Source: a bacterium BMS3Abin01
GTDB lineage: Bacteria > Actinomycetota > Thermoleophilia > BMS3ABIN01
Assembly: GCA_002897715.1 (NCBI GenBank)
Contig: BDUA01000039.1
Coordinates: 244 to 64,243, forward strand
Direction of reading: 5' to 3'
DNA length: 64,000 nt
In this document: piece by piece, positions 9,181 through 26,589 of the stretch
Position numbering within the stretch: position 1 is the first letter of the stretch
Layout of the letters: each line of letters starts with the position of its first letter
Notes under the pieces: model-generated
Told to the model about the DNA's origin: nothing
Database searches by the model: none
What the model saw: the letters and a program-made list of their open reading frames with translations, nothing else
Made by a program: the position numbers and the translations under genes

Positions 9181-10619
9181 AGAAGATCCTTCCGGTGATT
9201 ATCGCGGCGGGAGGCCACCACGTACCGCAGGAACTCCCTGGAAGCCCTGATGCTCTCACCGGGATGGCGGGTCAGACTCCCTATCTTCCTGGCGATATAG
9301 GCGGGGTTTAAATAATAGCGGCGGTAGAACTCCGCCTCCCGGCCGGTGCCGGCCTGATTCCTGAATTCACAGGTATAGGGCTTCAGGGAAAAGACGATGT
9401 TGTCCTTCTCCCGCTCGAACAGCTCCGTATTGGGGTAGGGAACCAGAGTGGAGACGGCGATGAATTCCAGTTTCAGCTTCTTTGCCAGGGCGATGCTCTG
9501 CTCGAAATCCGCCCGCTCCTCCACCGGGGACCCCACGATGAACCAGCCGACCATCTCCAGGCCGCTCTGCCGTACTTCCCTGAGGTTGTCCATTACCGCA
9601 TCCAGCCGGTAACCACGCTTGAGGTAATCGATCACTTTCTGTGAGCCGCTCTCGATGCCCACATAGATGCGGCGGCAGCCCGCATCCCGCAGTGCCGCGG
9701 CCACCTCCCCGTCAATGGTATTGGGACGGGTGAGACAGCTCCAGGTTATCTCGCTGGAGAGGTCACGCAGCCCGGCGCATATCTGCAGCGCTCTCTCCCG
9801 GGAGGCGGTAAAGGTATCGTCCATGAAACGGAAGTACCTGATGCCGGAGCCCTCCACCGCCGACCTCACCTCACTGACCACATGTTCTGCGGAAGCCTTG
9901 ACGAACTTGCGGCCGTAGGTCCTGACACAATACACGCAGGGGAACGGGCATCCCCTCGAAGACTGGAAGGTGGTATAGGGGTGGCCGAAAAACGGCTCGC
10001 CGTAGCGGGAATGGTCGATGGCGGCCTGGTCGGCGAACGGCAGTTCGTCCAGAGATTCGATCCGCTGATAATCGGCGGGGATGAACTGCCCGTCATCTTT
10101 CATGGCAGCCACACCGTCACCTTCCAGCGGTTGATTGTTCATCAGCCTCTGGAGAGCCTTGCGGAAGGAGTTGTCCGGCTCGCCGACCAGCACAAAATCG
10201 GTTTCCGTCGCCCTCAGGCATTCGTGGCTGAAACTGCTGGGAAGGTGGCCGAAGGTGCCCACCATCGCTCCCGGTAACTCCTTTTTCAGTCTTGCCATGA
10301 ATTCCACGTCATTATCGAAGAATTCGATCGCCATAATGGCGACGACCATATCGGGATCGTATCTTCCGGCCTGCTCCAGTGCTTCTTCCGCTGACAAGGC
10401 CTCGGCGATGCAGTCCATCAGACGCACCTGGCAACCACCCTCCGCCCTGGCCTGCGCCGACAGATACATCAGTTCCATGGGGGGGAACAGAAAGTTTGGC
10501 GCGTTGTATGAGCAGACATAACGCCGGATAATCTGGGACCGGTAAGGGGGATTGATAAGAAGTACTTTCAAATCACACCGTCCGGGTAAGTAAATATGCT
10601 GTGTATGGTAGTATAGCAA
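9177..10619 (-). CDS. Cobalamin-binding (class B) radical SAM enzyme
   Basis: 'LKVLLINPPY' B12-binding-like N-terminus. 'SSRGCPFPCVYC' radical SAM motif. Confidence 0.8.
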   Translation of the reverse strand: MLYYHTQHIYLPGRCDLKVLLINPPYRSQIIRRYVCSYNAPNFLFPPMELMYLSAQARAEGGCQVRLMDCIAEALSAEEALEQAGRYDPDMVVAIMAIEFFDNDVEFMARLKKELPGAMVGTFGHLPSSFSHECLRATETDFVLVGEPDNSFRKALQRLMNNQPLEGDGVAAMKDDGQFIPADYQRIESLDELPFADQAAIDHSRYGEPFFGHPYTTFQSSRGCPFPCVYCVRTYGRKFVKASAEHVVSEVRSAVEGSGIRYFRFMDDTFTASRERALQICAGLRDLSSEITWSCLTRPNTIDGEVAAALRDAGCRRIYVGIESGSQKVIDYLKRGYRLDAVMDNLREVRQSGLEMVGWFIVGSPVEERADFEQSIALAKKLKLEFIAVSTLVPYPNTELFEREKDNIVFSLKPYTCEFRNQAGTGREAEFYRRYYLNPAYIARKIGSLTRHPGESIRASREFLRYVVASRRDNHRKDLL

Positions 10620-11450: not shown

Positions 11451-12866
11451 TCAGGCCCAATGAAGGAAATCCTTCGCCATGCGCGCCAGGGCGCCGATGT
11501 CCCCGGTGGACTTTATCTTTCCCAGCGTTTTCATGACCACATGCGGCTGGCGATAGAAGCTCAGATAAGCCCGGTCCCTGGCGGCCATGACCTGTTCAGT
11601 GCTCAGTGAGGGCGTAGAAAGGATAGAGGTGTTCTGCTCGAAGTATTTCCAGTCCGTCTCACCGAGCCATCCGTTCTCGATGCTCTGTTCGTAAAGTTCG
11701 GAGCCGGGGAAGGCGACGGCGCAATAGAACTGCGCATAGTCCAGCCTGAGGAACCTGGCGAGATCTATCGTCATTTGCAGCGATTCCTCTGTTTCACCGG
11801 GCAGGCCCAGGATGCAGTGACCGGTTACTTCCAGCCCCACCTCATGGGCCATCCTCACGGCGGTGACCACATCGGTGATAGTGGTTTTCTTTTTTACCGC
11901 GTCCAGTATCTCCTGGCTGCCGCTCTCGATGCCGAACCCGATCATCCAGCAGCCGGCTTCCTTGATGGTCCTTAAAAACTCGGGGGATACCGTATCCACC
12001 CGGCTGTTACATACCCAGCTGACGTCCAGGTTGCGATCGATCATCTCCCGGGCGGTGGCTATCGCGTAATCCTGGTCATTGGTGAAGGACTCCGCCCAGA
12101 ACAGGAAATCCCGAATACCGAAGCTGTCCCTGATCCAGGATATCTCGTCCACGATCCTGGCGGGAGACCGTTTGCGTACCCTGGCCCCGTAATAAGCCTT
12201 GCTGGCGCAGAAGGTGCAGGCGTAGGGACAGCCGCGGGCGCTGGCGACCAGCAGGTACCGCTTGCCGGTGAAGGGCAGCCGGTAGCGGCCGGTGTCCACC
12301 AGGTCCCAGGCCGGGAACGGCAGCTCGTCCAGATCCTCGATGAACGGCCGCCTCTCATTATGGTGGACGATACCGTCCCGGCGATAGGAGAGCCCCGGGA
12401 TACCTTCCAGAGACCTGTCCTCGCTTATGGCCGCGGCCGCGTCCCGTATGGAGTATTCCGGTTCGCCGCGAACGATGATGTCCAGCCGGTCGTTGATGGC
12501 AAAACATTCATCCGGCAGGGTGCTGGGATGTATGCCCATGACCAGCGTCCGGCAGGCGGGAGCGGCGTCCTTTACCAGCGCCGCCACGGCGATATCCTGA
12601 TCGATGGAGGTGGTAGCCGTGTTTATCACCACCAGCGACGGCTGCCAGTCCCTGACCTCCCGGCTGACATCCTCGCCGCTGATATCCTCGACGCTGCCGT
12701 CGCGTATCCTGACTTCGAACCCCTCGTCCCTCAGCACGGCGGCGACGGTCGCCAGGGACACCGGCGACCATACGGTCGTCCAGGCGTCGGTCCTCTGCAT
12801 GCAACGCCCCTCCCTGATGACGTTCACCCCCTGCTCCGGCGGCGGGTTCAGTAACAGCACTCTCAT
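11451..12866 (-). CDS. Cobalamin-binding (class B) radical SAM enzyme
   Basis: 'MRVLLLNPPP' B12-binding-like N-terminus. 'SARGCPYACTFC' motif. Confidence 0.8.
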   Translation of the reverse strand: MRVLLLNPPPEQGVNVIREGRCMQRTDAWTTVWSPVSLATVAAVLRDEGFEVRIRDGSVEDISGEDVSREVRDWQPSLVVINTATTSIDQDIAVAALVKDAAPACRTLVMGIHPSTLPDECFAINDRLDIIVRGEPEYSIRDAAAAISEDRSLEGIPGLSYRRDGIVHHNERRPFIEDLDELPFPAWDLVDTGRYRLPFTGKRYLLVASARGCPYACTFCASKAYYGARVRKRSPARIVDEISWIRDSFGIRDFLFWAESFTNDQDYAIATAREMIDRNLDVSWVCNSRVDTVSPEFLRTIKEAGCWMIGFGIESGSQEILDAVKKKTTITDVVTAVRMAHEVGLEVTGHCILGLPGETEESLQMTIDLARFLRLDYAQFYCAVAFPGSELYEQSIENGWLGETDWKYFEQNTSILSTPSLSTEQVMAARDRAYLSFYRQPHVVMKTLGKIKSTGDIGALARMAKDFLHWA

Positions 12867-12901: not shown

Positions 12902-14281
12902 TCAATTGCTGTAGGAGATCAGGGCCTTCAGTATCTCTTTTACCTGGCCGGGCCGCGTATTGCGGAGCAGATGCCACATCTGATGGGGGCGTCCGTAGAA
13001 TCTCAGAACCGACCGGCGCTGCCAGCGATTCAGCTGCCTGGCATCAAGATCCCCCATCGGGAACGGCGTGAAATAGTTGAAAGCCCTGTAATCTATGCTT
13101 CCATCCCGGGAACGGTCCAGTACCTGCTCCTGAAAGATGGCCGATCCGGGCAGGGGAGCCAGCAGGCCGAAATTGGCCCGGTCGAAAGGAACCTTCAGGG
13201 CAAAGGATACGGTCTCCTTGATGGTATCCACCGTCTCTCCCGGCAGGCCGATGATGAAGAAGCCGTTGGTCTCGATGCCGTGACCTTTGACCATCTCCAC
13301 CTTGCCGGCCACTTTTTCCAGGTTCAGCCTCTTGTGGTTGATGTCCAGCACCTTCTGGCTGCCGGATTCGATGCCGAACCCCAGGGCGTAACAACCGGAG
13401 CGCCGCATCAGGTCCAGCAGTTCATCGTCCAGCGAATCGATGCGCACGCCGTTGGGTGTGCTCCAGACGATATCCAGCCCGCGCCGCAGCATCTCTTCAC
13501 AGATGGCGGCCGCATGGCTGCGCTTCAGGGTGAAATTATCATCCTCGAAATGTATCTCCTGCACCTGGTAATCCTTAACCAGCATCTCAATCTCATCCAC
13601 CACGTTCTCCGGCGACCGCGTCCGCCATCTCTTCCCCCAAAGGGTGGTAGAGGCGCAGAAAGTACAGTCAAAGGGGCAGCCGCGGCTGGTCATGACCGAA
13701 CCCACGGGAAACTTCCGGGAAAGCAGCTGGTGCGGCAGGTCCGGATATGTGCGGGGGTCCATCAGCTCCCATGCCGGAAAGGGCAGGGAATCCAGGTCTT
13801 CGATGAATGGCGAGCGCCGGCTGCAGCTGACCTCATCACCGACCAGCCGGCAGACACTCGCCAGCTCACCGTCAGGGCTGCGGCCGGCCGCCAGCGCATC
13901 GACTACCCGGGGGAACACCAGCTCCGCCTCGCCGATGATCCCCAGCGGCACCCCCAGGTTCTTCAGAGCGTCATCGGGGACCGCCGTGACATGGGGACCG
14001 CCGATCACCAGCGGTACGGACGGCAATTTCTGCTTGATGGCGGCAATCAGCTCCTGGGCGGGAAGATAGGCGGTGCTGAGGATGCTGATACCTATGAGGT
14101 CGGGCTTCAGCAGGGCAAGCTCCCTGACCCCGCTCTCGGCGCCCAGCCGCCGCCTGGCGAGATCCAGCAGCGCCACCTCGTGGCCTCTTTGCTGGACACA
14201 GGCCGCCAGATAACCCAGCCCCAGGGGTGGGGTTACAGTGTGGGCGCTTGAGTTGGGAGCAACCAGGACTACTTTCATCAC
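12902..14281 (-). CDS. Cobalamin-binding (class B) radical SAM enzyme
   Basis: 'MKVVLVAPNSS...IGGPHVT' B12-binding-like N-terminus. 'TSRGCPFDCTFC' motif. Confidence 0.8.
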   Translation of the reverse strand: MMKVVLVAPNSSAHTVTPPLGLGYLAACVQQRGHEVALLDLARRRLGAESGVRELALLKPDLIGISILSTAYLPAQELIAAIKQKLPSVPLVIGGPHVTAVPDDALKNLGVPLGIIGEAELVFPRVVDALAAGRSPDGELASVCRLVGDEVSCSRRSPFIEDLDSLPFPAWELMDPRTYPDLPHQLLSRKFPVGSVMTSRGCPFDCTFCASTTLWGKRWRTRSPENVVDEIEMLVKDYQVQEIHFEDDNFTLKRSHAAAICEEMLRRGLDIVWSTPNGVRIDSLDDELLDLMRRSGCYALGFGIESGSQKVLDINHKRLNLEKVAGKVEMVKGHGIETNGFFIIGLPGETVDTIKETVSFALKVPFDRANFGLLAPLPGSAIFQEQVLDRSRDGSIDYRAFNYFTPFPMGDLDARQLNRWQRRSVLRFYGRPHQMWHLLRNTRPGQVKEILKALISYSN

Positions 14282-15082: not shown

Positions 15083-15910
15083 TCAGGCCATGAAGGGGGA
15101 CCCGATGAAGGCACACAGTCCGTTGACGAATTTATCTCTTTCCCTGCCGCGAATCACATCGGAGGTCTCGTTCCTCACCGGACTGTCGGTCACCAGCAGC
15201 GCCATGGCGGTCTTCAGGCCCATATAGTTTGCCAGAGCGAACTGGCTGGACGCTTCCAGCTCTACCGCCAGCAGACCGTCCCGGTTCCAGGATGAGATTA
15301 GCTCCTCCGTCTCCCGGAAGACGGCGCCGGTGGTAACAATGGGCCCCTGTCTGACCGGTAACCCCCGCCCGTCGAGAAAACCGGCAAGAGCGGCGGTAAG
15401 CTCGGGGTCCGCCGGAACCAAGTCACCGTACTCATAGCCGTAATGGAGCGACAGGCAGTCGCCCGCCCGGGAGGACTCGGCCACGATGATGTCACCGCAG
15501 TCGATATCCTCCTGCAGGGCGCCGCAGGTGCCCAGGCCGATGACCGTATCGACGCGGGTGAACTTCAGGCTGCGCATGATGCCCTCCAGGATGACCGTCC
15601 CCGGCGGCACCCGCATATAGCCCACCAGCCGGCCACCGATATAGCCCGTGTACAGGGCGCCGAAATGCTTATGGCTACCCAGCAGGGGGCTGAGGAAATC
15701 CTCGCCCAGGGCCAGCAACATTACCCTGGGGGTAAAATCATGGGGGTCGCTTCCCTGGAAGACCCAGCGCTCAGAGGCGAAACGGATGAATTTTTCTTCC
15801 CAGTTGGTCATCATGTCTCCATTTACAATTTCATTATCCTTAAGCCACTCCCGTTCGTGTCCCGCCGCCCCCGGTGCCTGTATCATATCCCCCATCCGGA
15901 AACCGGACAA
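15083..15910 (-). CDS. MTA/SAH (5'-deoxyadenosine) nucleosidase family protein (Pfs/MtnN-like) with N-terminal extension
   Basis: Aligns by eye to E. coli MTAN: 'VIGLGTCGAL' vs 'SGIGKVAAAL', 'GDIIVAE...GYEYGDL' vs 'GDIVVSD...GYEYGQL', 'AVELEASS' vs 'AVEMEATA'. Confidence 0.75.
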   Translation of the reverse strand: MSGFRMGDMIQAPGAAGHEREWLKDNEIVNGDMMTNWEEKFIRFASERWVFQGSDPHDFTPRVMLLALGEDFLSPLLGSHKHFGALYTGYIGGRLVGYMRVPPGTVILEGIMRSLKFTRVDTVIGLGTCGALQEDIDCGDIIVAESSRAGDCLSLHYGYEYGDLVPADPELTAALAGFLDGRGLPVRQGPIVTTGAVFRETEELISSWNRDGLLAVELEASSQFALANYMGLKTAMALLVTDSPVRNETSDVIRGRERDKFVNGLCAFIGSPFMA

Positions 15911-16012
15911 CGCCGGCCGTAGCCGCTGGACTTCCGCCAGGGACTTCCATGTTCCATAACATGGTCGCGGGACGCAAGGACAGTCCCGCCGGCTGGACAG
16001 CGGGCGCCGCCG

Positions 16013-18562
16013 CTACACAGTGTAATCGCCGTGGATGAATCGCCGCGCATATTCGTCAGCGACCGCATCGCTGATCAACGGCGCATCCAGCTGGCGGGTA
16101 TAGGCCATGAGCCTGCCGACCTGATCCAGGACGCGCAGGGCTTCCGCCTCGTTCACGTTGGTGACCACGCCCGTGATCAAGTCTCCCTTTATCTCGGTCA
16201 CAAAACCAAAATGCCGGAGTATGGTTTCCAGCATGTGGACCCGCCGCACCCGTTTGGAGACGGCCGCCGCCCCGCCCAGAAAGCGGAAATAGACGTGATT
16301 ATTGACGGATTTGGTATCGACGAAAGCGTCGACTATGGTGAAATGGTAACCGAAACGTACGGCCAGGTTCAGGTAGCGCCGCGATATCACGGCCAGGTTT
16401 ATATGGACGCTGTCCTGGATATCCCCGGTGCGCATGCTGGCGGTCATCAGGTCCGACAGGCTGACGTTGCCTACGCTCTGGCGCCAGGCGCCCGGATGGG
16501 TCATCCCTTCAAGAACGGCCCGCAACGGCGCCGAATTCACCTGCTCCATGGAAACCTTTTTTTCCGTATCCGGCTTCAACCCGTCGCCGATGTCGATAAC
16601 ATGTATGTCTTCCATCAGGGAGATATCCAGCTGTTTGAGCGAAGCCCGCCGGTCGGCATACCGCGAGGAGTCGATCAGCTTCTGCATCGATTTTTCGTGC
16701 ATGAACCTGAGGATATCGTGGACGGTGCGGCAGCGTTCCGGCAGGAAATCATCGGTAAAGGGATTTACCAGGTTCAGCGGCGCGATGAACTTCATGATGT
16801 ATTTTTTCCGGCGGAACTCGAACAGCTCTTCCAGCTTGATGAAACTGTCGTGATGCCCGCCGATGATTCCAGTGGCCACCCCCCGGTACACCACCATGCC
16901 GCCATCCTCGCCGGCCTTCAGGGTGATCTCCTCGCCGGACTTTATCAGGTCGGTGGCGTTGCCGGCATTGACCACAGTAGGAACCCTGAACTCGCGGCTG
17001 ACTGAAGCCATATGGCTGGTGGCGTTGCCCGAATCGGTGATAATGGCCGCGGCGTAGGGCATGACGCGGACGAACTGGGGTGAATCGTTGCGCGCGACCA
17101 GTATGGCCCCCCAGGGAAAATCATCAAGGGTCGACGTTTCATCAACCATAAACGCCCTGCCGCCCACAACCCCCGGATAAACCACTATGCCCTGGTCGTG
17201 CATAAGCACCGGGTGCTCTCCGGCCGGTTGTGCGTCCACTGTTTTCGTGGTCTCCCCGCCGGCGGGCTCCTGTATCCTGAGGAGCCGTGACTGCAGGATA
17301 ACCACCCGTCCGTTCCGATCCAGCGCCCATTCGATATCCTGGGGCTCATGGTAAAAGTTCTCGATCTTCATCGCCTGCCGGGACAGCTCAGCCAGCTGTT
17401 CCTCATTGAGCGAGGGGGCGCGCTGCCGGTCGGCGGACACCTCACGCTCCTCCAGCCCGCCCGCCGCGGCCATAACGGCCATGGTGTCCTTCTTCCCCAG
17501 CCTGATCTCTTCCGGCTGGAAGGGGGGTGTCTTTTTTACCCGGAACGTATCCGCTTCGGTGAGATTGTCCACCACGGAGGTTCCCAGCCCCCAGGCGGAG
17601 TTGATCAGCATCGACTGCCGGTCTTTACCCATGGGGTTGACTGTATAAGCCACACCACTGGCGACGGCGTCCACCATGGCTATGACCCCCACTGCCATCC
17701 TCATGGCGGCGGGGCTGTAGTTGAGGTTCAGCTGATAGGCGATAGCATCTTCGGAGAACAGGCTGGCGACGACCCGGCGGTAAGCGTCCAGAACGGCGTC
17801 CACGTCAGGGGATACGTTCAATACGGTCTCGAACTGGCCGGCGAAAGAGAAGACCTCATCTTCCTCTTCACCGCTGCTGCGCACCGCCAGGCTGCAGGCG
17901 CCTTCACATTCCTGCCGCAGCCTTCCCAGCGCCTCCTCCACTTCCCTCTTCAGGGAGTCCGGGAACCCGCCCGCCATTACGCGGGCGCGCAGCTCCGCCA
18001 GCATGCCGGGCTCGTACTCATGTTCTTCCAGCTCGGCGAGGTCCTGGTCCAGATGGTTATGCCTGATGAAGTCATCGTAAGCGTGAACGGTGAGGACGAA
18101 CCCATCGGGGACCGCCAGCCCCACGGCGTTCTTTACCTGGGAAAGGTGGTAATTCTTGCCCCCCACCGCTTTCGCCGCCTCCGGCAGGATATCATCGAAG
18201 GATATCAGCCGCCGCTGAGCCCTCTTTGCCTGAGGGTTGAGCAGCTCCCGGATATGCAGGTCGATGCTGTTGAAAACCGGTTCAAGCTGCGGATACTGGC
18301 CATCAGTAAGCCGGTTGAAATCCGCCAGGGAAACCCGCATGGCCGTAGCCAGCTCGCTGTAGGCCTCCCGCATATAGGCGATGTCGAACAGGTACCCCCC
18401 GCTCATCTTTTCGCTCATGTCATTAATGATCTTCAGAGCGCGGTCGTTATCATCGAGGATCTTCTTGTAACCCTGGAATACGGACTGGATATTGACATGC
18501 CTGACTTGCAACTGACTTCCGTATCGCCCCAGCAGGGACCGCATTTTCTTCAGTATGGCCAT
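16013..18562 (-). CDS. PEP synthase / pyruvate phosphate dikinase family phosphotransferase (PPDK_N ATP-grasp + phosphohistidine swivel domain + divergent C-terminal domain)
   Basis: 'GGKNYHLSQVKNAVGLAVPDGFVLT' PPDK_N signature. Mobile-domain 'DSGNATSHMASVSREFRVPTVV' (TSHAAI-like phospho-His). The ~330-aa C-terminus does not resemble the canonical PEP-utilising TIM barrel. Confidence 0.7.
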   Translation of the reverse strand: MAILKKMRSLLGRYGSQLQVRHVNIQSVFQGYKKILDDNDRALKIINDMSEKMSGGYLFDIAYMREAYSELATAMRVSLADFNRLTDGQYPQLEPVFNSIDLHIRELLNPQAKRAQRRLISFDDILPEAAKAVGGKNYHLSQVKNAVGLAVPDGFVLTVHAYDDFIRHNHLDQDLAELEEHEYEPGMLAELRARVMAGGFPDSLKREVEEALGRLRQECEGACSLAVRSSGEEEDEVFSFAGQFETVLNVSPDVDAVLDAYRRVVASLFSEDAIAYQLNLNYSPAAMRMAVGVIAMVDAVASGVAYTVNPMGKDRQSMLINSAWGLGTSVVDNLTEADTFRVKKTPPFQPEEIRLGKKDTMAVMAAAGGLEEREVSADRQRAPSLNEEQLAELSRQAMKIENFYHEPQDIEWALDRNGRVVILQSRLLRIQEPAGGETTKTVDAQPAGEHPVLMHDQGIVVYPGVVGGRAFMVDETSTLDDFPWGAILVARNDSPQFVRVMPYAAAIITDSGNATSHMASVSREFRVPTVVNAGNATDLIKSGEEITLKAGEDGGMVVYRGVATGIIGGHHDSFIKLEELFEFRRKKYIMKFIAPLNLVNPFTDDFLPERCRTVHDILRFMHEKSMQKLIDSSRYADRRASLKQLDISLMEDIHVIDIGDGLKPDTEKKVSMEQVNSAPLRAVLEGMTHPGAWRQSVGNVSLSDLMTASMRTGDIQDSVHINLAVISRRYLNLAVRFGYHFTIVDAFVDTKSVNNHVYFRFLGGAAAVSKRVRRVHMLETILRHFGFVTEIKGDLITGVVTNVNEAEALRVLDQVGRLMAYTRQLDAPLISDAVADEYARRFIHGDYTV

Positions 18563-18568
18563 TACGGT

Positions 18569-18943
18569 TTAGGGCTTATCATCCGGGATCAACGCTTTCC
18601 GGATCGACTCCTTCAGTTCCTTGATCCTGACCGGCTTGGGAAAGAAGTCGAATACGTCCTCCTTGATGGCTTCGATGGCCACGTCCAGGTTGGCAAAAGC
18701 GGTTATCATGATGACCTTGGTATTGGGATACAGCTTCTTCACCGTCCTTAGAACCTCCAGGCCGTCGATATTCTTCATTTTCAGGTCGGTTACCACTACA
18801 TCGAAGGGCTGCTCCTCCAGCTTCTTCAGAGCCGGGCCGGCGTTTAGGAAAGTCTCCACCTCGTAGCCCTCTTCCTCCAGTGATATCTTGGCCATGTCTC
18901 CAACTATTTTCTCATCATCTATGATCATGATCCTGTGACTCAT
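18569..18943 (-). CDS. Stand-alone response regulator receiver domain (CheY-like)
   Basis: 'IMIIDDE...VVTDLKM...IMITA' with conserved Asp/Lys positions. No output domain. Confidence 0.85.
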   Translation of the reverse strand: MSHRIMIIDDEKIVGDMAKISLEEEGYEVETFLNAGPALKKLEEQPFDVVVTDLKMKNIDGLEVLRTVKKLYPNTKVIMITAFANLDVAIEAIKEDVFDFFPKPVRIKELKESIRKALIPDDKP

Positions 18944-20349
18944 GCGCTCCCTTTCTCCTGGTCGTTGACAGGTAGCTGAATAGTGAATGTAGTGCCCAAC
19001 CCCATGCGGCTGTCAACCTTGATATTACCGCCATGGGATTTGATGATACTGTAGCTCACCGACAGGCCCAGGCCGGTCCCTCCCTCCTCCTTGGTGCTGA
19101 AGAACGGATCGAATATATGGGGGATGTATTCGGAAGGTATCCCCTTGCCGGTGTCAGTAATCCTTATCTCCACCATGCCGTTTTCCGAATCAAGGCTGGT
19201 TCTTACGGTAAGCCGGCCCTCCGGCCGCATGGCCTGGGCGGCGTTGACAAACAGGTTTACCAGGACCTGCTGCATCTGGTTTTCATCCAGTAACAGCCGC
19301 GGCAACCCTTCGGCCAGCTCCACGCGGCTTTTGATATTGGCCACATTCAGGCTGTTCTGTACCAGCAGCAGCGCCTTCCTCAACAGCTCGTTGATGTCCA
19401 CTTCGCTGAGCCTGGGCTCCCTGGGTTTGGCAAAATCCAGAAGGTTATCGACTATCTGCTTGATCCGCTCCGACTCCTGGTCCACTTTCTCCATGAACTC
19501 CCGCCTCTGGGACGGGCTCAACTTGTCGTACATCTCTTCATATGTCTGGGCGATCATGGAGATATTGTTGACCGGGTTGTTGAGTTCATGCGCCACTCCG
19601 GCAACCAGTACGCCCATGGAGGCCAGCTTCTTGGACTGGATCAGTTCTTCTTCCCGCTGCTCCAGCTCCTCCGACATGGTGTTGATCGCCTCGATGACCA
19701 CCCCGAACTCGTCCCGGCGTATAGACGACTCGATCTTGCTGTAATCACCGGCGGCGATCGATCTGGCCTGGAGCTCTATGTACTTTATGGGCTTCAGAAC
19801 CATCCGGGAAACCACCCGGCTGACAATCAGCGCCGTCACTATCACGGCGAAGAAGGATGAGAACAGCAGCAGCTTGGACCGGTTGATGATGTTGCTGATA
19901 TGCTCCCGCTCCAGCTTGGTGATGCGGGAGGAGGTCTCCTCCAGATCATGTCCCTTCGCCCTGATATTGTCCGCGATCTGCTGGTTCCAGGAGTCATTAT
20001 CGATCGCCTCCGTTACCGCCACGTTATAATCGTAGAGTCCCTTTTCAAGCTGGTTATAACCTGACTCACCGATAACGGGGATAATGTCATCCTTCACCTC
20101 ATCCAGTACATCGTTAGCCTTGGAGATGTTGGTCTTGATCTCGTACAGGGCGGTGATGTTGTTAAACAGGAAATAGTTCTTTTCCGAGAGCCTCATCTCC
20201 AGAAAGGAAGTATTGAGGTCGTCGGCTATCTCCAGGAACCTTTGCTTGGAGCTGACGCTGTTCAGTGACTGGATGGCGGAACCACCGATGATCACGATGA
20301 GCACCAGGTAGATCGCGTTCAGGAGGATGATTTTTCGTTCGATCTTCAT
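18940..20349 (-). CDS. Sensor histidine kinase with extracytoplasmic sensor domain
   Basis: Two TM segments flank a ~150-aa sensor domain. H-box 'HELNNPVNNI'. HATPase_c 'DTGKGIP...GGTGLGLSVS'. Confidence 0.85.
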   Translation of the reverse strand: MKIERKIILLNAIYLVLIVIIGGSAIQSLNSVSSKQRFLEIADDLNTSFLEMRLSEKNYFLFNNITALYEIKTNISKANDVLDEVKDDIIPVIGESGYNQLEKGLYDYNVAVTEAIDNDSWNQQIADNIRAKGHDLEETSSRITKLEREHISNIINRSKLLLFSSFFAVIVTALIVSRVVSRMVLKPIKYIELQARSIAAGDYSKIESSIRRDEFGVVIEAINTMSEELEQREEELIQSKKLASMGVLVAGVAHELNNPVNNISMIAQTYEEMYDKLSPSQRREFMEKVDQESERIKQIVDNLLDFAKPREPRLSEVDINELLRKALLLVQNSLNVANIKSRVELAEGLPRLLLDENQMQQVLVNLFVNAAQAMRPEGRLTVRTSLDSENGMVEIRITDTGKGIPSEYIPHIFDPFFSTKEEGGTGLGLSVSYSIIKSHGGNIKVDSRMGLGTTFTIQLPVNDQEKGSA

Positions 20350-20352
20350 TAT

Positions 20353-21444
20353 TTATCGCACCGGGTCGGACAGCAGCCGTTCCAGCTTCGGTTCTTCCTT
20401 TCGGGTTGGCAGATACCATTGCAGCCCGTCGATGATCATCGTCCCGCCGGCCAGTATCAATATCAGACCCCACAAGGACACCATGTCCACCTGGAAATAA
20501 CGAACCAGGCCCAGGCCGATACCCAGAAAGACGATCCCGGTCCTGATGAAAGCCAGGCCGGTCCGCGCCCGGGCATACAGGGTCCTGTAGCAGGCGGCCA
20601 ATGTTCGTTGGGCGGCCAGTATATCGCGTTCACGGGCCAGGTGCGTCCGTTCACGGCTTTCCGGTTCCGGCCGCAACAGGGAACAGTAGCTGGGCAGAAA
20701 ATCTGTCAGCCGCGACAGCATGGTTGCCTTTGTTCTGGGCCTGGGCGCGTAATCAACCTGGTAGTCTTCCACGAAGCGCAGCGCCGCCCCCGTCACCTCA
20801 ACCAGGGTCTGCGGGCCCGGGGACCTCATCATCAAACGGCGCAGCTTCAGGTAAAGATAAAGCCCCACGCCGGTAATGGCTATTCCCGATACCAGCAGGA
20901 CCCAGTAAACAAGCTGGGTGAAGGTGAAGCTCCACCCCAGCACGGCGGAGGCGCTGGCCAGGGTGACGAAACCCAGCCCCCACCTGAGGACCGACAGCGA
21001 CACCCTGATCTTGGCGAGATCGGTGCGGTAGCAGGCCAGCCTGGTCCTCCAGGTAGCCATGGTGTTGCGCCAGTATGCCAGTCCGGTGCGTTCGGTGCCG
21101 ATGATCTCACCGGGCGGCGCGTTCAGATAGTCATCGATCATCCACCTGATATGCGATTCCGGAGCCACGCGCAACTCGTAGGGAGCGCCCCGGACCACCT
21201 TCCTCACCACTTCCATGTCAACATTTTCGGGGTCGGCGACCGCGACCACGATCCGGTCGCCATCCTTGATCACCGGGAACACCAGCGCCCGCGCCAGCAG
21301 ATCCGGATCCATGCCCTCCAGCAGTTCCGGCGGCACCGGCAGCCGTTCATCGTACTGGATGGACTCAATCCCGTATCTTCGCGACAGCTCCTTCAGAGCC
21401 TCCCCGCAGTCAGCCCAGTCCTGCTCCTGATCATAGGTCGTCAT
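20353..21444 (-). CDS. Membrane protein with N-terminal GspE/PilB N-terminal-like (T2SSE_N, second half) domain and tandem DUF202 (YidH-like) repeats
   Basis: 'ELLEGMDPDLLARALVFPVIKDGDRIVVAVADPENVDMEVVRKVVRGAPYELRVAPESHIRW' resembles the T2SSE_N fold. Repeated 'ERTxLAxxRTxLA' DUF202 units, each followed by TM helix pairs. Start moved to the Met at 21442-21444 to avoid a 125-nt overlap; the track start is 21555. Confidence 0.55.
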   Translation of the reverse strand: MTTYDQEQDWADCGEALKELSRRYGIESIQYDERLPVPPELLEGMDPDLLARALVFPVIKDGDRIVVAVADPENVDMEVVRKVVRGAPYELRVAPESHIRWMIDDYLNAPPGEIIGTERTGLAYWRNTMATWRTRLACYRTDLAKIRVSLSVLRWGLGFVTLASASAVLGWSFTFTQLVYWVLLVSGIAITGVGLYLYLKLRRLMMRSPGPQTLVEVTGAALRFVEDYQVDYAPRPRTKATMLSRLTDFLPSYCSLLRPEPESRERTHLARERDILAAQRTLAACYRTLYARARTGLAFIRTGIVFLGIGLGLVRYFQVDMVSLWGLILILAGGTMIIDGLQWYLPTRKEEPKLERLLSDPVR

Positions 21445-22747
21445 GGCTGAACACCACCTTACTCCAGCGACTTGCGGGTACGCCATAATTGGGCATGCCG
21501 ATCTCAAGGTCGCCGTAACAATAGGGGAACTGCTCCCTGACCTTCTCGGAAACACGGAACCAGCGCAATCCGTCCAGGATGAGCGTCATTCCCAGCATTA
21601 CCATGATAACCTCTATAATCACCCACATCAGACCGCCCGGCAGGAAGGTGATCAGACCCGCCCCAACCGCTGATATGCTGGTGCCGGTGCGGATAAAGGC
21701 AAGCCCGGTCCTGGAATGGGCCATCACCACCCTTAATCGCGACATCAGGTTCCGGCGCTCCGCCAGAACGGTCCGCTCCAGCGCCAGCCCGGTTGTACCC
21801 CATACACCGGGGGCGTGAGACGCTTTAACCGGCGGATAGGTATCCCGGAAACGATTGAGCGGCGGAAATTCAATATCCCAGATATTCTTTTCCTTGAGGG
21901 ACTTCCTGAATATCCTCATGGCTTTACTGCCGGCGCGATAGCCGGGTACGTACCAGTAAAACCCCTCCAGAGCCATGGCCGAGCCCACCACTATCAGGAA
22001 GATGTCGAAATAGGTCCAGACGCTGGCCGGAAAGCTCCTGATGAGGGCCAGCCCCAGTCCGGCAAAAGCCACGCCGGAGCGGGTAAAAGCCAGGCCGATG
22101 CGCGTTTTGGCCATGATCGTCCTCAGCGAAGCATAGGCGGTGCGGTCCTCTGCCATGTCGGTGCGGTCGTTGGCCAGGAACCTCCGGCGCTCCACCGGCG
22201 CCAGTTCGTTCCAGCCGGCGCGGAGCTGCTCCGCGCCCCTGACCGCGTCGCTACGGAAATAACGGGGGTCCGTGAGCTCGTCCGCTACGCCCAGCACAGT
22301 TACTCCCGGCTCCCTGGGAGTACTCTCGTAACCCAGATTACGGGCAGCGTCCTTGCGCACCGGTAAATACCATCTGAGGCCGTCAAGGATCATCACCACC
22401 CCCGCCGCCAACAGCGCCAGGTCGAGCGTCAGGATGACGGCTCCGGTGCCGAAAAACCGCGTAAAGGAAACGGCGATGGTTACCATGGCGATGCCGGTAC
22501 GGAAGAACGCCAGGCCGGTCCTGCCCTTTGCCAGAGCGGTCCGCTGTGAAGACAGCGCCGACCGGCGGCCGGACAGATGGGTCCGTACCTTCGCCAGAGG
22601 TGTCCTGCCGGCGAAAGGAGGGAACCCCGGGTTCAGGTCCTGCCGGACCCCGGTGGTCTGGGTTTCCCCGGTAGATTCGCCGGAAGAATATGCCCCCCCG
22701 GTCATCAAGCCTGATTCCGCTTCATCGGAGTGATTACTCTGTCGCAA
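21431..22747 (-). CDS. Membrane protein with three or four tandem DUF202 (YidH-like) repeats
   Basis: Repeated 'NDRTxxAxxRTxxAxxRTGLAFxRTG' units, each followed by two TM helices. Paralogous to the adjacent gene. Confidence 0.6.
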   Translation of the reverse strand: MRQSNHSDEAESGLMTGGAYSSGESTGETQTTGVRQDLNPGFPPFAGRTPLAKVRTHLSGRRSALSSQRTALAKGRTGLAFFRTGIAMVTIAVSFTRFFGTGAVILTLDLALLAAGVVMILDGLRWYLPVRKDAARNLGYESTPREPGVTVLGVADELTDPRYFRSDAVRGAEQLRAGWNELAPVERRRFLANDRTDMAEDRTAYASLRTIMAKTRIGLAFTRSGVAFAGLGLALIRSFPASVWTYFDIFLIVVGSAMALEGFYWYVPGYRAGSKAMRIFRKSLKEKNIWDIEFPPLNRFRDTYPPVKASHAPGVWGTTGLALERTVLAERRNLMSRLRVVMAHSRTGLAFIRTGTSISAVGAGLITFLPGGLMWVIIEVIMVMLGMTLILDGLRWFRVSEKVREQFPYCYGDLEIGMPNYGVPASRWSKVVFSHDDL

Positions 22748-22886
22748 ATGATCAAATCTGTGATACAGATAACTTCATAAACTATAATTATATAACGTTT
22801 AGCTGCGACATTTATATATGGAGGCACCCCCGGGAATCCGGCGAAGATATGTATGCCGGTAAAAACCGCTTTCCACAGGTAACTCA

Positions 22887-24332
22887 TTGGCTGACAGAAG
22901 CAGAGTACCACTTAACGCTGTCCTGCTGAGCACATCCCAGTTCCTCCGGGCGGTCATCGGTTTCCTTTTTTTCCTGTTTCTGGCCCGCCGCCTGGGACCG
23001 GTCGATTACGGCAGGTATATGTTCGCCTTCGCCCTGGCGGAGATCTTCTCCATCATGGGCGACTTCGGCCTCCACGAATACTCCATCCGGGAATTCGCCC
23101 GCCGACCTGAGCTGCTTGCCCGGCGGTTGCCCGGCATCCTGGGACTTAAAACGGTACTGTCCTGCCTCTCCGCCGCAGTCATGATCGCCCTGGTGCCGCT
23201 GCTGGGCCGGGACCCCGCCACCTCGCTGGCGGTGACCGCCTTCGCCCTGGCCCAGATAGGCTATTCCTGGTACTACGCGGCCACCATCGCCTACTCGGTA
23301 AAGCAGGACCTGCATATCCAGGCGTTGCTCTGGCTGCTGCAGAAGTTCTTCTTCGTCGCCGCCGGCGTGGCCGTGATACTGGCCGGACGCGGCTTCGTCG
23401 CCGTGGCCTTCAGCAACACCCTGGTACAGTTCGCCGGCGGCCTGGTGGCGGTGGCCATCGTCCTGAAGAAATACGGGCCCTTCGTCCGCTCCCTTGACCA
23501 CCAGCGATGGCTGGGCTACCTGAAGGCCGCCCTGCCCTTCGGCCTCATCGTCGCCTTCTACCTGGTCTATTTCCGGGTGGACAGCGTGATGATCTCCTTC
23601 TTCCGCGGTGATGCCGAAGTGGGCCAGTACAACGCCGCCTACAGCCTGGCGTCGGCGATGATGTTCGCCCCCGCCGGCCTGGTCGCCGCCCTGTTCCCCC
23701 GGCTGGCCGGTACCTACCGCTCTCCCGGAGACAACCTGGACGCGCCGTTCCAGCGGGCCGCCCGCTGGTTGCTGGTGATGTCACTGCCCCTGGCGGTGGG
23801 GGGCTGGCTGCTGGCGGACCAGCTCATGGTCTGGCTGCTGGGCGCCACCTACCTCCCGGCGGCCTCGGCGCTGAAGATACTGGCGTGGACCCTGCCCGTC
23901 TGGTTCATCACCTTCCTGCAGGGCAACCTGCTCACCATCATCGAACGGCAGAAGGCGGTGGCGGTGGTGGGCTTCGTCAACATGACGGCCAACGTGGTGC
24001 TGAACCTGATAATCATCCCCCGCTACGGTTTCGCCGGCGCCGCCGCCACCACCCTGGCTACGGAGGTCATCGGTATGGCCCAGATGTTCTACCTGCTCCG
24101 GCGCAACATCACCCTGACACGGACCGCCCTCACCGCCGCTTCCATCGGCGCCCTGTCCGCGCTGACCGGGGCACTCATCTGGCAGCTGCGTGACAATCTG
24201 CATGTCCTGGGGGTTATCCTCATCGCCACTGTGTTTTATGGAACGGCGGTGATGGGGCTGAAGATCATACGCCCGTCCGAGCTGAAGGCGCTGCTGGGCC
24301 GCGGACGCCCCGGTGGCGGCGGTGAAGGCTAG
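22887..24332 (+). CDS. Wzx-type oligosaccharide/polysaccharide flippase (MOP superfamily)
   Basis: ~480 aa with 12-14 TM helices. Composition typical of a 'polysaccharide biosynthesis protein'. Located in a GT/Wzy context. Confidence 0.7.
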   Translation: MADRSRVPLNAVLLSTSQFLRAVIGFLFFLFLARRLGPVDYGRYMFAFALAEIFSIMGDFGLHEYSIREFARRPELLARRLPGILGLKTVLSCLSAAVMIALVPLLGRDPATSLAVTAFALAQIGYSWYYAATIAYSVKQDLHIQALLWLLQKFFFVAAGVAVILAGRGFVAVAFSNTLVQFAGGLVAVAIVLKKYGPFVRSLDHQRWLGYLKAALPFGLIVAFYLVYFRVDSVMISFFRGDAEVGQYNAAYSLASAMMFAPAGLVAALFPRLAGTYRSPGDNLDAPFQRAARWLLVMSLPLAVGGWLLADQLMVWLLGATYLPAASALKILAWTLPVWFITFLQGNLLTIIERQKAVAVVGFVNMTANVVLNLIIIPRYGFAGAAATTLATEVIGMAQMFYLLRRNITLTRTALTAASIGALSALTGALIWQLRDNLHVLGVILIATVFYGTAVMGLKIIRPSELKALLGRGRPGGGGEG

Positions 24333-25453
24333 GCCTTCTTTTCGGACCTGCCGCCAGGGCCGGCGGCGGCCTCGTCCAGCCGCGCCGCCACGAAATCGGC
24401 TATCTCCCGCCTGAATCGTTCTTTGGAGAATGAAGCAGCGTGCCGCGACAGCTTTGCCGCATCGAAATCCCCGGGGGCGAAGCGTGATACCCCCTCGATC
24501 AGGGAGGCGACCGTGGGCTCGGGGAACAGTACGCCGGTCTCGCCGTCGATCACCGTCTCCAGCAGCCCGCCGCGGCCCAGCCCGATCACCGGCTTGCCGG
24601 CGGCCATGGCCTCCACCGGAACGATGCCGAAGTCCTCTTCGCCCGGGAACACCAGCGCCACGCACCCGTCTATCAGCTCCGGCACCTGCTCGTCGAAGGC
24701 GTAGCCGCTGAACCGGACATTCGCCGCCGCCATGCGTTCCAGCCGCTTCCGCTCCGGACCGTCGCCCACTACCTTGAGCGGCAGACCCAGGCGGGAGAAG
24801 GCCTCCACCGCCAGTTCCACGCGCTTGTAGGCCACCAGTCGCGACAGCACCAGGAAGTAGCTTCCCTGTTTCCCGCGGGGCGGGAATCGTTCCACGTCCA
24901 CCGGGGGGTTGATTACCGTCGCCTGGCGACGGTAATACTTGGCTATCTTGGCGGCGATGTTCCGCGAGTTGGCGATGAAGTGATCCACCCGGTCCGCCGC
25001 CAGCCGGTCCCACAGGCGCAGGTAGTGGAGCACCAGGTTGCTGCCGGCTCTGGCCACCGGGTTGGCGAACCGGAGGCGCGCGTCCAGATGCGGCTCCCAG
25101 GCGTAGCGCAGGGGCGTGTGGCAATAACAGACATGCAGCGTCCCGGGCCCGGTGAGGATACCCTTGGCGCAGGCCGAGCTGGAGGAGAGAACCAGGTCGT
25201 AAGCGGAGAAATCAAAGGATTCAAAAGCCAGGGGGAAAAGGGGTATGTACCTCTGCGCCACCTGGTGCAGAAAGGGCAGCTTCTGCACGAACGAAGTACG
25301 CACGTCCCAGGACATAACCGAATCCGGCAGGTTACGGCTGGAAAGAAAGCTGGTATAGACCGGGGCGTCCGGGTAAACCTCCAGGAACGCCTCCACCACC
25401 CGCTCGGACCCGCCCAGCGTCGTCAGCCATTCATGTGAGATCGCGACCTTCAA
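24329..25453 (-). CDS. GT4 (GT-B fold) glycosyltransferase
   Basis: 'EDFGIVPVEAMAAGKPVI' EX7E-like C-terminal motif. N-terminal 'KVAISHEWLTTLGGSERV'. Confidence 0.8.
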   Translation of the reverse strand: MKVAISHEWLTTLGGSERVVEAFLEVYPDAPVYTSFLSSRNLPDSVMSWDVRTSFVQKLPFLHQVAQRYIPLFPLAFESFDFSAYDLVLSSSSACAKGILTGPGTLHVCYCHTPLRYAWEPHLDARLRFANPVARAGSNLVLHYLRLWDRLAADRVDHFIANSRNIAAKIAKYYRRQATVINPPVDVERFPPRGKQGSYFLVLSRLVAYKRVELAVEAFSRLGLPLKVVGDGPERKRLERMAAANVRFSGYAFDEQVPELIDGCVALVFPGEEDFGIVPVEAMAAGKPVIGLGRGGLLETVIDGETGVLFPEPTVASLIEGVSRFAPGDFDAAKLSRHAASFSKERFRREIADFVAARLDEAAAGPGGRSEKKA

Positions 25454-25638
25454 GTAGACCCCCTGTCAATGCCATCTGTCTATCTGTCGGCGCCGGCGGG
25501 GAAAAATTCAGCCCCGGCGCCCGGCCGTCCCGGCCGTCTTCATTTGAGAATAGCCGCCAGAAAGCATATACTTTTTGTAGGAATTATTCAGTAACGGATG
25601 ATATTGTGTGTTGTTCAGCGAATACCTTGAAGCGGTAC

Positions 25639-26589
25639 ATGGCCCCAGCAAAGTCTCAGAAAAGCATGGACGAAGCTATCATCAAAGCGCTCTGTTACGC
25701 TGATATCTTCAACTTCCCCTTGACCCTCGAAGAGATCGTCCGTTTCGTCCCCGGGACCGAGCTCAGCATCGATGAAGCCGCCAGCCGGATCAGCAACAGC
25801 AAACCGCTGGGCAGGGTCGTGAAGAAGAACACCCACATGTTCTACCTTGAAGGCAGGGAGGCCAACTGCCGGGTGCGGCAGGACCGTGAGCCCGTCTCCA
25901 AACAGAAGCTGGAGATAGCCCTCCGGCGCCTCATCCCCCTGCAGGGCATACCCTTCCTGCGGACAGCTCTGATAACCGGCGCCCTGGCGGCTTTCAACTC
26001 CCCCGAGGGCGACGATGTGGATCTGCTTATCATCAGCGCCCCACGGCGTGTATGGACCACTTATTTCTTCCTGCGCGTCTGGCGCCTGTTCGGACACAAC
26101 CCGGACATCTGCTTCAACATGTTCCTCAGCGAGGGAAACCTGGAGCTGGAAGGCGGCAATCAGAATTTCTTCTACGCCCGCGAGATACTGGGCGGCATAA
26201 AGGTATTCAACGAGACCGGCACCTTCGACCGCTTCCTGGACAGGAATCCCTGGGTCTACGATTTCTTCCCCTCCTACATCGCCGACGGCGAGCGCCTGGG
26301 CTTCCGCATCTGCCGCAGCCCGCGCTGGCGACGGCGCCAGGCGAAGCTGGAGCGCCTGCTGAGCGGCTTTCCGGGGGACCTGCTGGAATACGCGGTGCGG
26401 AAGGCGCAGTACCGGCAGATGGTGAAATCCACCCCGGGCGCCGCCGAACGCATGGACTCCAGGCGCATCAAGCTTCACAAGAGCGACAACCGCCCGCCCA
26501 TCCTCAACAGGTACGAACAGAACGTGCGGCACTGGCTGGACCGGTACAACCGTCCGTCCCGGGGAAAAAGGAAGAAGGAGCGGGCCTGA
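25639..26589 (+). CDS. Hypothetical protein, possible nucleotidyltransferase-fold (Pol-beta/LicD-like) enzyme
   Basis: 'GALAAFNSPEGDDVDLLIISAP' fits the G[SA]x9-13DxD NTase motif. Start set at the ATG at 25639; the track ORF starts earlier in a low-complexity region. Confidence 0.4.
   Translation: MAPAKSQKSMDEAIIKALCYADIFNFPLTLEEIVRFVPGTELSIDEAASRISNSKPLGRVVKKNTHMFYLEGREANCRVRQDREPVSKQKLEIALRRLIPLQGIPFLRTALITGALAAFNSPEGDDVDLLIISAPRRVWTTYFFLRVWRLFGHNPDICFNMFLSEGNLELEGGNQNFFYAREILGGIKVFNETGTFDRFLDRNPWVYDFFPSYIADGERLGFRICRSPRWRRRQAKLERLLSGFPGDLLEYAVRKAQYRQMVKSTPGAAERMDSRRIKLHKSDNRPPILNRYEQNVRHWLDRYNRPSRGKRKKERA

Follow-up and report, generated by a model that had tools for sequence, protein, structure and literature searches.

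Paired DUF202 membrane proteins with an invariant arginine ladder in a conserved five-gene cassette of bacterium BMS3Abin01: a putative conduit for phosphate-rich anions

Overview

The genome of bacterium BMS3Abin01 (Actinomycetota; Thermoleophilia) encodes two adjacent membrane proteins, here called A and B, on a stretch of 64,000 nucleotides (contig BDUA01000039.1 of assembly GCA_002897715.1, positions 244 to 64,243 of the forward strand; the whole stretch is referred to as the window). The two proteins together carry five DUF202 modules, three in A and two in B, and each module begins with a ladder of arginines at exact seven-residue spacing that runs into its first transmembrane (TM) helix. 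The genes for A and B open a five-gene cassette that also encodes a membrane histidine kinase, a CheY-type response regulator and a PpsA-like phospho-histidine enzyme. To our knowledge, DUF202 (YidH) is a widespread bacterial membrane domain to which no bacterial function has been assigned, and its only understood role is in the pore of the eukaryotic VTC complex. We tentatively propose that A and B form one complex in which the five DUF202 modules build an arginine-lined conduit for a phosphate-rich anion, working with the PpsA-like enzyme under the control of the kinase and the CheY-type regulator. This reading is plausible but falls short of being probable, and it would give prokaryotic DUF202 proteins a specific, testable mechanism. 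The two genes are:

21431..22705, minus strand: gene A, a 424-amino-acid membrane protein with three DUF202 modules
20353..21444, minus strand: gene B, a 363-amino-acid membrane protein with two DUF202 modules behind a truncated MshEN-type domain

Two paralogous proteins built from DUF202 modules

The genes for A and B overlap by 14 nucleotides, with the stop codon of A lying inside B. An alternative TTG start for A is present at 22747 (open reading frame (ORF) 21431..22747), although the start is more probably the ATG at 22705, as used by a database fragment of A (P0303). The product of gene B matches the 363-residue database entry ‘hypothetical protein BMS3Abin01_00810 [bacterium BMS3Abin01]’ with 100% identity. 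A and B are paralogues (BLASTP E = 8.6e-23, 30% identity over 245 residues), and a second BLASTP alignment between them is offset by one module.

Protein A matches the Pfam DUF202 model (PF02656) with E = 7.9e-12 and 45.9 bits (cut-off 23.4), and B as a whole lies marginally under the cut-off (22.7 bits, E = 1.4e-4). When the modules are scanned singly, A1, A3 and B2 score above the 23.4-bit cut-off (27.2, 33.7 and 26.6 bits) and A2 and B1 score below it (14.8 and 16.2 bits), while all five align to the model from profile position 1–2. An earlier reading of the window from its sequence alone (hereafter the sequence-only reading) had described tandem paralogues made of repeated DUF202 modules, which the BLASTP and Pfam matches bear out. 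It had also counted three or four DUF202 units in each protein, and this number does not hold, as A has three TM hairpins and B has two. The consecutive ‘ERT..LA’ units on which it had drawn are indeed seen in the sequence, but they are the five to six RTxLAxx heptads that precede each hairpin and not modules in themselves. The five modules are:

22343..22615, minus strand: module A1, six arginine rungs (R34, 41, 48, 55, 62 and 69 in the numbering of the 424-residue protein) into TM1, then TM2 and DGLRWYLPVRK
21902..22198, minus strand: module A2, six arginine rungs (R174 to R209) and a TM hairpin
21512..21799, minus strand: module A3, five arginine rungs (T304, then R311 to R339) and a TM hairpin
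20827..21114, minus strand: module B1, six arginine rungs (R119 to R154) and a TM hairpin
20389..20676, minus strand: module B2, six arginine rungs (R266 to R301), a TM hairpin and DGLQWYLPTRKEE

Each module consists, in order, of five to six R-T-x-L-A-x-x heptads, a hydrophobic helix, an uncharged loop of 3–7 residues and a second hydrophobic helix, and the alignment of the five modules has no internal gaps over its first 60 columns. A D-G-L-x-W-Y-x-P-x-R-K motif ends the modules and is missing in B1, which is the most divergent of the five. Module A3 is followed by a conserved C-terminal tail, FPYC.GD.E...KVVFSHDD, with invariant positions. According to hydropathy and the AlphaFold2 models, each module has two TM helices rather than the three of Vtc1 and YidH, which gives six for A, four for B and ten in total.

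The AlphaFold2 model of A (mean predicted local distance difference test score (pLDDT) 83.6, predicted template modelling score (pTM) 0.81) contains six long helices arranged as three hairpins, with helices at residues 34–85 and 89–120 (A1), 170–224 and 231–271 (A2), and 304–354 and 359–392 (A3). The model of B (pLDDT 79.0, pTM 0.64) places helices at residues 115–168 and 174–206 (B1) and at 262–317 and 322–344 (B2). The heptads and TM1 form a single continuous helix of ~52 residues in every module of both models, and therefore ~30 residues of each such helix would project into the cytoplasm.

Arginine is the first residue of each heptad, and the exact seven-residue spacing yields six rungs per module, or five in A3, and 29 rungs per A/B pair. 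In an alignment of 48 A and 51 B homologues, which are only ~50% identical overall, the rungs are invariant in 48/48 A and 51/51 B sequences save for one, rung 5 of B1, which is arginine in 50 of the 51 and lysine in the remaining one. The five ladder segments have a net charge of +31. Judging from the heptad pattern, the arginines would occupy the middle of a conserved helix face with leucines on one side and alanines and threonines on the other. The sequence RTGLAF(I/F)RTG stands at the cytoplasmic start of TM1 in A1, A3 and B2, and variants of it are found in A2 and B1. The DUF202 signature (E)RTxLAWxRT is thus present with its arginines invariant and its glutamate replaced by glycine, alanine or serine.

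The number of modules per protein is constant across the family. A search of 1.84 billion representative proteins with a five-module profile returned 2228 matches at E ≤ 0.001, among which A-type proteins always show three matched stretches and B-type proteins always two; the apparent single-module proteins among the top matches are gene fragments. There are 839 homologues of gene A, and 1017 of 8000 scored candidates are homologues of the A/B architecture at E ≤ 0.001, so that the database holds more than 1000 of them.

Arginine rungs at the positions of the VTC pore rings

The cryo-electron microscopy structure of VTC is a Vtc1:Vtc3:Vtc4 heteropentamer (3:1:1) with five DUF202 domains, the TM1 helices of which line the pore; K24 and R31 of Vtc1 form two basic rings in the cytoplasmic vestibule and are needed for polyphosphate accumulation, and E30 of Vtc1 forms a salt bridge between subunits with R83 of TM3 (PMC9911596; bioRxiv 10.1101/2023.01.27.525886). 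The eukaryotic VTC polyphosphate polymerase has an SPX-VTC-DUF202 architecture (PMC12388464). The VTC channel is represented by PDB entries 7YTJ and 8I6V, and the Vtc1 sequence compared with the window proteins is identical to chain 8i6v_A over all 129 residues. Positions 1–67 of the Pfam DUF202 profile correspond to Vtc1 residues 24–85, and in A1, A3 and B2 profile position 1–2 falls exactly at the rung-4 arginine. Since these three modules start the profile at rung 4, the Vtc1 counterpart of rung 4 is K24 and that of rung 5 is R31. Rungs 4 and 5 of every module stand on profile positions 1 and 8, like K24 and R31.

Further features are shared with VTC. The module count (3 + 2 = 5) equals the number of VTC subunits, both systems have five DUF202 domains with TM1 basic residues at i+7, and DUF202 is associated with a phosphotransfer enzyme in both, by fusion in VTC and within the same operon here. 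The architecture differs in that the modules are tandem repeats on two polypeptides (3 + 2) rather than five subunits, in that each module has two TM helices rather than three, and in that the ladder has six arginine rungs rather than two basic rings. Modules of two helices can be concatenated because both of their ends lie on the cytoplasmic side. Invariant residues at the pore-ring positions of VTC, multiplied three-fold, together with the module count and a phosphotransfer enzyme genetically locked to the family, provide a concrete hypothesis for DUF202.

Single-domain DUF202 proteins of the YidH type belong to the same Pfam family and share the RT..LA..RT signature leading into TM1. The only functional literature on YidH that we found is a D-alanine export screen, in which YidH expression left D-alanine accumulation unchanged (PMC10299036). 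A YidH-type protein is a single module of ~115 residues with three TM helices, whereas the window proteins have tandem two-TM modules, additional heptads, an MshEN-type domain and a fixed operon.

Pentameric channels of the CorA type combine a TM hairpin with a long stalk. As an architectural analogy, CorA and the modules of A and B share two TM helices per unit, a TM1 prolonged on the cytoplasmic side by a long stalk helix that would line a funnel, a short outer loop and cytoplasmic ends. On the other hand, CorA is a homopentamer with a cation funnel lined by acidic or hydroxyl residues, whereas the funnel of A and B would be lined by arginine and would be pseudo-pentameric. No sequence or fold match to CorA was found for the window proteins.

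A conserved five-gene cassette

The genes for A and B are followed by three genes on the same strand and preceded by a divergent intergenic region:

18940..20349, minus strand: cassette gene 3, a membrane histidine kinase (Pfam HAMP, HisKA and HATPase_c)
18569..18943, minus strand: cassette gene 4, a single-domain CheY-type response regulator (Pfam)
16013..18562, minus strand: cassette gene 5, an 849-amino-acid PpsA-like enzyme (Pfam PPDK_N and PEP-utilizers)
22706..22886, no strand: AT-rich intergenic stretch that separates gene A from the divergently oriented flippase gene, the presumed cassette promoter region

The kinase gene starts 3 nucleotides past the stop codon of B, the CheY gene overlaps the kinase gene by 4 nucleotides, and the gap before the PpsA-like gene is 6 nucleotides. 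Scans of 15700..23100 for promoters, terminators and sigma-54 sites gave counts within chance, and an Rfam riboswitch scan found nothing relevant.

The order of the cassette is conserved among relatives, as counted over the 80 best loci and two more found via homologues. Gene A is immediately upstream of B in 75/75 loci with enough flanking sequence. Downstream of B, the kinase gene is found in 52/65 loci, the regulator gene in 57/65 and the PpsA-like gene in 51/65, and all three are present together in 48/65 loci from at least three phyla with unrelated flanks; several of the exceptions to the cassette order are rearrangements of the same genes. The adjacency to a two-component system pointed out in the sequence-only reading therefore extends to the relatives, and the arginine ladder and the PpsA-like fifth gene, both absent from that reading, are to be added to it. 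Relatives of B occur in 249 of 185,579 species genomes (one genome per species), and the carriers are almost all metagenome-assembled genomes (MAGs) of Nitrospirota/Thermodesulfovibrionales, Thermoleophilia and other Actinomycetota, and Desulfobacterota.

In the window, the cassette is surrounded by a glycan-biosynthesis cluster with genes for a flippase, glycosyltransferases (GT1, GT2 and GT4), a sugar transferase, a DegT aminotransferase, Wzy_C and radical SAM proteins. The link to the flippase and to polysaccharides that was drawn from this placement is not upheld by the relatives. The same five genes stand between ribosomal-protein genes and rpoB in a Thermoleophilia MAG (L003), and after TauE, Alph_Pro_TM and two Usp genes in a Nitrospirota MAG (L001). 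A role in polysaccharide export, as suggested by the neighborhood, was considered and rejected, as the neighborhood is not conserved.

The composition of the cassette also allows a reading in which A and B are a signaling accessory, i.e., a membrane scaffold or co-sensor for the kinase, the CheY-type regulator and the PpsA-like protein in a stress module, with the arginine helices forming a structural coiled-coil stalk that has no ligand. We regard this as possible though rather doubtful. A two-component system is part of the cassette, Usp genes flank the cassette in Nitrospirota, and in Desulfobaccales the genes for stand-alone proteins homologous to the C-terminal domain of the PpsA-like enzyme (see below) are surrounded by genes for Usp, TauE, a histidine kinase, CheY and PPDK_N. 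MshEN-type domains are also known to dock proteins, as in the PilB-N/PilZ complex (7LKO), and the stalks of 10–20 heptads in a related family look structural. However, a scaffolding role hardly accounts for 29 invariant arginines with strict heptad spacing and a net charge of +31. Packed into a bundle, like charges would repel each other unless neutralized by an anion, and two of the rungs match functional pore rings of VTC.

A second alternative is that A and B are a channel or transporter for a small anion or ion, such as sulfate, sulfite, phosphate or another oxyanion, which acts independently of the PpsA-like enzyme and shares the neighborhood through co-regulation. The combination of hairpin and long stalk recalls the pentameric CorA-type channels, genes for TauE-family anion permeases recur nearby, and many of the hosts belong to sulfur-cycling Nitrospirota or Desulfobacterota. 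For a small ion, however, six rings over ~40 Å would make an excessive vestibule, and the PpsA-like gene is linked as tightly as the kinase and regulator genes, with a spacing of 6 nucleotides. Moreover, the cassette is also found in Thermoleophilia without TauE. Such a channel is therefore an unlikely explanation.

A second two-component system, consisting of a HAMP kinase and a sigma-54-type regulator of the NtrC family, often flanks the cassette of relatives (L001, L007–L012, L023, L028, L031, L033, L043, L051, L053, L056, L072 and L074). This pair of kinase and NtrC-family regulator was not seen among the genes on either side of the window's own cassette, and the scan of the sequence preceding gene A gave no sigma-54 promoter.

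The PpsA-like enzyme and its orphan C-terminal domain

The 849-residue product of cassette gene 5 consists of an N-terminal extension of ~115 residues (window 18200..18562), a PPDK_N ATP-grasp domain (residues 131–432), a swivel phospho-histidine domain (residues 483–550) and an orphan C-terminal domain of 290 residues. The swivel histidine lies within GNATSHMAS, and the catalytic histidine with its [TA]SH motif is retained in 53/54 orthologues. The ATP-grasp PPDK_N domain and the swivel domain with the TSH motif are shared with PpsA, rifampicin phosphotransferase and PigC/RedH. Structures of phosphoenolpyruvate (PEP) synthase and the NCBIfam models of this enzyme align only to residues ~116–567, where the ATP-grasp and swivel domains lie, and the match to PpsA 2ols is confined to residues 118–562. 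The scores of the NCBIfam models, 303 and 294 bits, are far below their cut-offs of 598 and 740.

Unlike PpsA, the cassette enzyme has the additional N-terminal extension, and its C-terminal 290 residues are unmatched to the PEP/pyruvate-binding domain with which PEP synthase ends; in this respect the protein does not qualify as a PEP synthase. The C-terminal region (16013..16885) had no Pfam match at E ≤ 10, and a profile of this domain built from 31 sequences gave one match in the PDB, at chance level. It contains the conserved motifs FGYHF, YFRFxGGA and KRxRR. The search for homologues of the C-terminal domain recovered its own family and, in addition, only unannotated stand-alone proteins of ~400 residues from Desulfobaccales (P0275 and P0281), which join the C-terminal domain to the N-terminal extension. 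The genes for the Desulfobaccales stand-alone proteins (L088–L090) sit among genes for Usp, TauE, DVU0150, a dCache kinase, CheY and another PPDK_N/PEP-utilizers protein.

A second and more divergent PpsA-like paralogue (~400 vs ~700 bits) is encoded beside the cassette copy in L015, L019, L024, L069 and L080.

A separate family of DUF202 proteins with a single hairpin carries 10–20 xRTxLAx heptads before TM1 (P0301, P0304, P0311 and P0323). The gene for this protein adjoins a Cytidylate_kin2 (PF13189) gene in 4/4 contexts (L084, L085, L087 and a JGI contig), and one of these contigs also has genes for PPDK_N/PEP-utilizers, Metallophos, CheY, Alph_Pro_TM, TauE and a HAMP kinase. DUF202 modules with RT heptads thus recur beside nucleotide-dependent phosphotransferases, which echoes the logic of enzyme plus channel in VTC.

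A truncated MshEN-type domain in B

The N-terminal part of B is a domain that is related to the N-terminal domains of secretion and pilus ATPases:

21121..21426, minus strand: MshEN/GspE-N-type alpha/beta domain of B (residues ~7–108; Pfam match 33–108)

The Pfam model PF05157 matches B with 45.5 bits and E = 7.6e-12 (cut-off 23.1) over profile positions 9–85 of 90. In a Foldseek search with the predicted domain, the top PDB match is MshE with cyclic di-GMP (c-di-GMP; 5HTL_B, root-mean-square deviation 2.5 Å, 92 of 139 residues, probability 1.00), and further matches are the N-domain of XpsE, the GSPII domains of PilF and the PilB-N/PilZ complex (7LKO). The domain of B comprises the C-terminal alpha/beta part and one helix, or approximately two-thirds of an MshEN domain. 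The N-terminal four-helix half is absent from the window protein and present in long-form homologues; by alignment, homologues from Nitrospirota and some Actinomycetota have ~50 more N-terminal residues, and the family profile covers the whole GSPII domain of PilB, PilF and MshE. The sequence-only reading had compared the start of B with the second half of the MshEN/T2SSE_N fold. For the lineage of the window this comparison is correct, and neither of the refuting outcomes named in that reading arose: both PF02656 and PF05157 were matched, and the predicted domain aligns with the alpha/beta part of the 5HTL fold.

Protein A has no MshEN domain in the lineage of the window. In most lineages an MshEN-type domain is found on A as well, and such A proteins have ~545 residues. 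In the window lineage, the domain has been lost from A and truncated in B. The domain of B contains a family-invariant motif, YDERLPVPPELL.

The binding site for c-di-GMP in MshEN domains is a 53-residue element with two 24-residue motifs in an N-terminal four-helix bundle, and the motif is a tandem RLGxx(L/V/I)(L/V/I)xxG(L/V/I)(L/V/I)xxxxLxxxLxxQ, for which a relaxed form has also been given (PMC5013675). The relaxed 24-residue motif was found in 0/240 proteins of the A/B family, and neither A nor B of the window has a match. The best tandem motif scores, 13–15 of 22 positions, are at the level of spurious matches in the truncated protein. The role as a c-di-GMP receptor that had been implied for this domain is not sustained, as the binding half is missing in B and the motif is absent throughout these proteins. 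The similarity to the domains of MshE, PilB, PilF and XpsE thus lies in the sequence profile and in the fold of the C-terminal alpha/beta sub-domain, whereas B lacks the four-helix half that binds c-di-GMP, the family lacks RLGxx motifs, and the domain of B is joined to a membrane protein rather than to a secretion ATPase and has an invariant YDERLPVPP motif of its own.

These results bear on the possibility that A and B are a c-di-GMP-responsive membrane effector, in which the MshEN-type domain senses c-di-GMP and regulates the neighboring polysaccharide and flippase machinery. The PF05157 match and the fold match to MshE (5HTL) would agree with such an effector, as would the location of the genes inside a large glycan-biosynthesis cluster and the known fusions of MshEN domains to glycosyltransferases and uncharacterized domains (PMC5013675). 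Nevertheless, the 53-residue N-terminal element is missing from the window protein, neither the relaxed motif nor the tandem scores given above indicate a binding site, the association of glycan genes with the cassette is not conserved, and the Rfam scan found no c-di-GMP riboswitch. The effector reading is contradicted by the tests run here and is highly improbable, and the MshEN-type domain of B should not be counted as a c-di-GMP receptor.

The names of the homologues in the database, such as ‘type II secretion protein’, ‘GspE/PulE/PilB domain-containing protein’ and ‘YidH/DUF202’, are uninformative or misleading. Many of these names imply a component of type II secretion or of a type IV pilus, and what favors such a component is only the similarity of the N-terminal domain to GspE, PilB, PilF and MshE. 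A and B have no secretion ATPase domain, as Pfam finds MshEN and DUF202 only, the score for the NCBIfam PilB model is 16.6 bits where 675.65 would be needed, and there are no genes for type II secretion or type IV pili in the cassette or its conserved neighborhood. A secretion or pilus component is effectively refuted by this domain content, and its likelihood is negligible. The more than 1000 entries that go by ‘type II secretion protein’ or by ‘GspE/PulE/PilB domain-containing protein’ are therefore misnamed, whichever reading of A and B holds.

No publication was found that describes tandem two-helix DUF202 modules, the 3 + 2 pair, the six-rung ladder or an operon with a PpsA-like enzyme, nor one that combines DUF202 with MshEN or with PpsA-like enzymes. 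In this sense the architecture is undescribed, as the sequence-only reading had put it, but it is represented in the databases by the many homologues under the names given above. Both domains were already known; the tandem two-helix modules, the obligate pair, the ladder and the fixed operon appear to be new to the literature that we found.

Proposed function of the A/B complex

A and B would be obligate partner subunits of one complex in the cytoplasmic membrane, with 3 + 2 modules; that they work together is supported by the 75/75 adjacency, the 14-nucleotide overlap and the constant module numbers of three and two. The five first helices may assemble like the five TM1 helices of yeast VTC, and the cytoplasmic vestibule would be extended to an arginine-lined funnel of ~40 Å, similar in shape to that of CorA and opposite in charge. 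This funnel could bind or conduct a phosphate-rich anion, for which polyphosphate and a phosphorylated polymer or metabolite are candidates. The complex would work with the co-transcribed PpsA-like phospho-histidine enzyme, whose putative acceptor-binding domain is unlike that of PEP synthase, and control may be exerted by the adjacent HAMP kinase and CheY-only regulator. In B, the truncated MshEN-type domain would serve as a cytoplasmic docking or regulatory domain, as in PilB-N/PilZ (7LKO), and not as a c-di-GMP sensor. What the analysis shows is the domain content, the number of modules, the continuous helices, the invariant ladder with rungs 4 and 5 on Vtc1 K24 and R31, the constant pairing of A with B and the conserved cassette; that the modules close into a ring of five, that the arginines face a lumen, which ligand is bound and that the enzyme is coupled to the complex are inferred.

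Several observations weigh against this proposal. An hhalign comparison of the module profile with Vtc1 gives the same register as the Pfam mapping and backs it up, but the match is statistically weak (E = 0.015–0.021, probability 2–3%). A sequence search of PDB chains with A found nothing at E ≤ 10, so there is no direct match to VTC, and Foldseek matches of the A model in the PDB are non-significant (best E = 0.045, TM-score ≤ 0.2, ABC exporters). These matches, which are long-helix ABC exporters and pore-forming toxins, speak neither for nor against VTC. As there is no significant direct match to VTC in sequence or fold, the link to VTC rests on the shared Pfam model. The position equivalent to Vtc1 E30 is glycine, alanine, serine, alanine and alanine in the five modules across the family, and therefore the packing of the modules must differ from that in VTC. 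TM3 is missing as well, with two TM helices per module where YidH and VTC have three. Both observations are consistent with a joint loss of the E30 partner and the TM3 partner of the salt bridge. No SPX or TTM polyphosphate polymerase domain was found by Pfam in A, B or the cassette, in which the partner enzyme is PpsA-like instead, and the cassette has no polyphosphate genes (PPK, PPX, Pst or PhoU). Furthermore, the histidine kinase, response regulator or PpsA-like gene is not immediately downstream in about a quarter of the loci. Four Nitrospirota loci (L060, L065, L073 and L076) have two tandem copies of A in an A-A-B order, which departs from a strict 3 + 2 arrangement, and the top matches of the 1.84-billion-protein search include no natural fusion of five modules, the maximum being three full modules.

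A stronger form of the proposal is that the system is a bacterial analogue of VTC. The phospho-histidine of the PpsA-like enzyme would build or load a phosphate polymer, with polyphosphate as the obvious candidate, and hand it to the 3 + 2 DUF202 channel, where six arginine rings would thread the polymer across the cytoplasmic membrane under the control of the cognate kinase and CheY-type regulator. We consider this version quite improbable as it stands. If true, it would represent a previously unknown bacterial route for the synthesis or export of a polyanion and the first function for prokaryotic DUF202 proteins. If the more general model of an arginine-lined conduit holds, it would explain the passage of a phosphate-rich anion through the membrane in some anaerobic Nitrospirota, Actinomycetota and Desulfobacterota, and it would add a new acceptor specificity to the PpsA/PPDK family of enzymes.

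Other genes of the glycan cluster

The glycan-biosynthesis cluster of the window includes three paralogous genes for B12-binding radical SAM proteins:

9177..10619: B12-binding radical SAM protein
11451..12866: B12-binding radical SAM protein
12902..14281: B12-binding radical SAM protein

Genes for a SPASM radical SAM protein, a GT2 glycosyltransferase and a DegT aminotransferase are located near this trio (6166..9180). The radical SAM group suggests an unusually modified sugar or polymer. Elsewhere in the cluster, an ORF of 384 residues (25435..26589, plus strand) lies with a GT4 glycosyltransferase gene on one side and a sugar-transferase gene on the other, and it overlaps a long antisense ORF.

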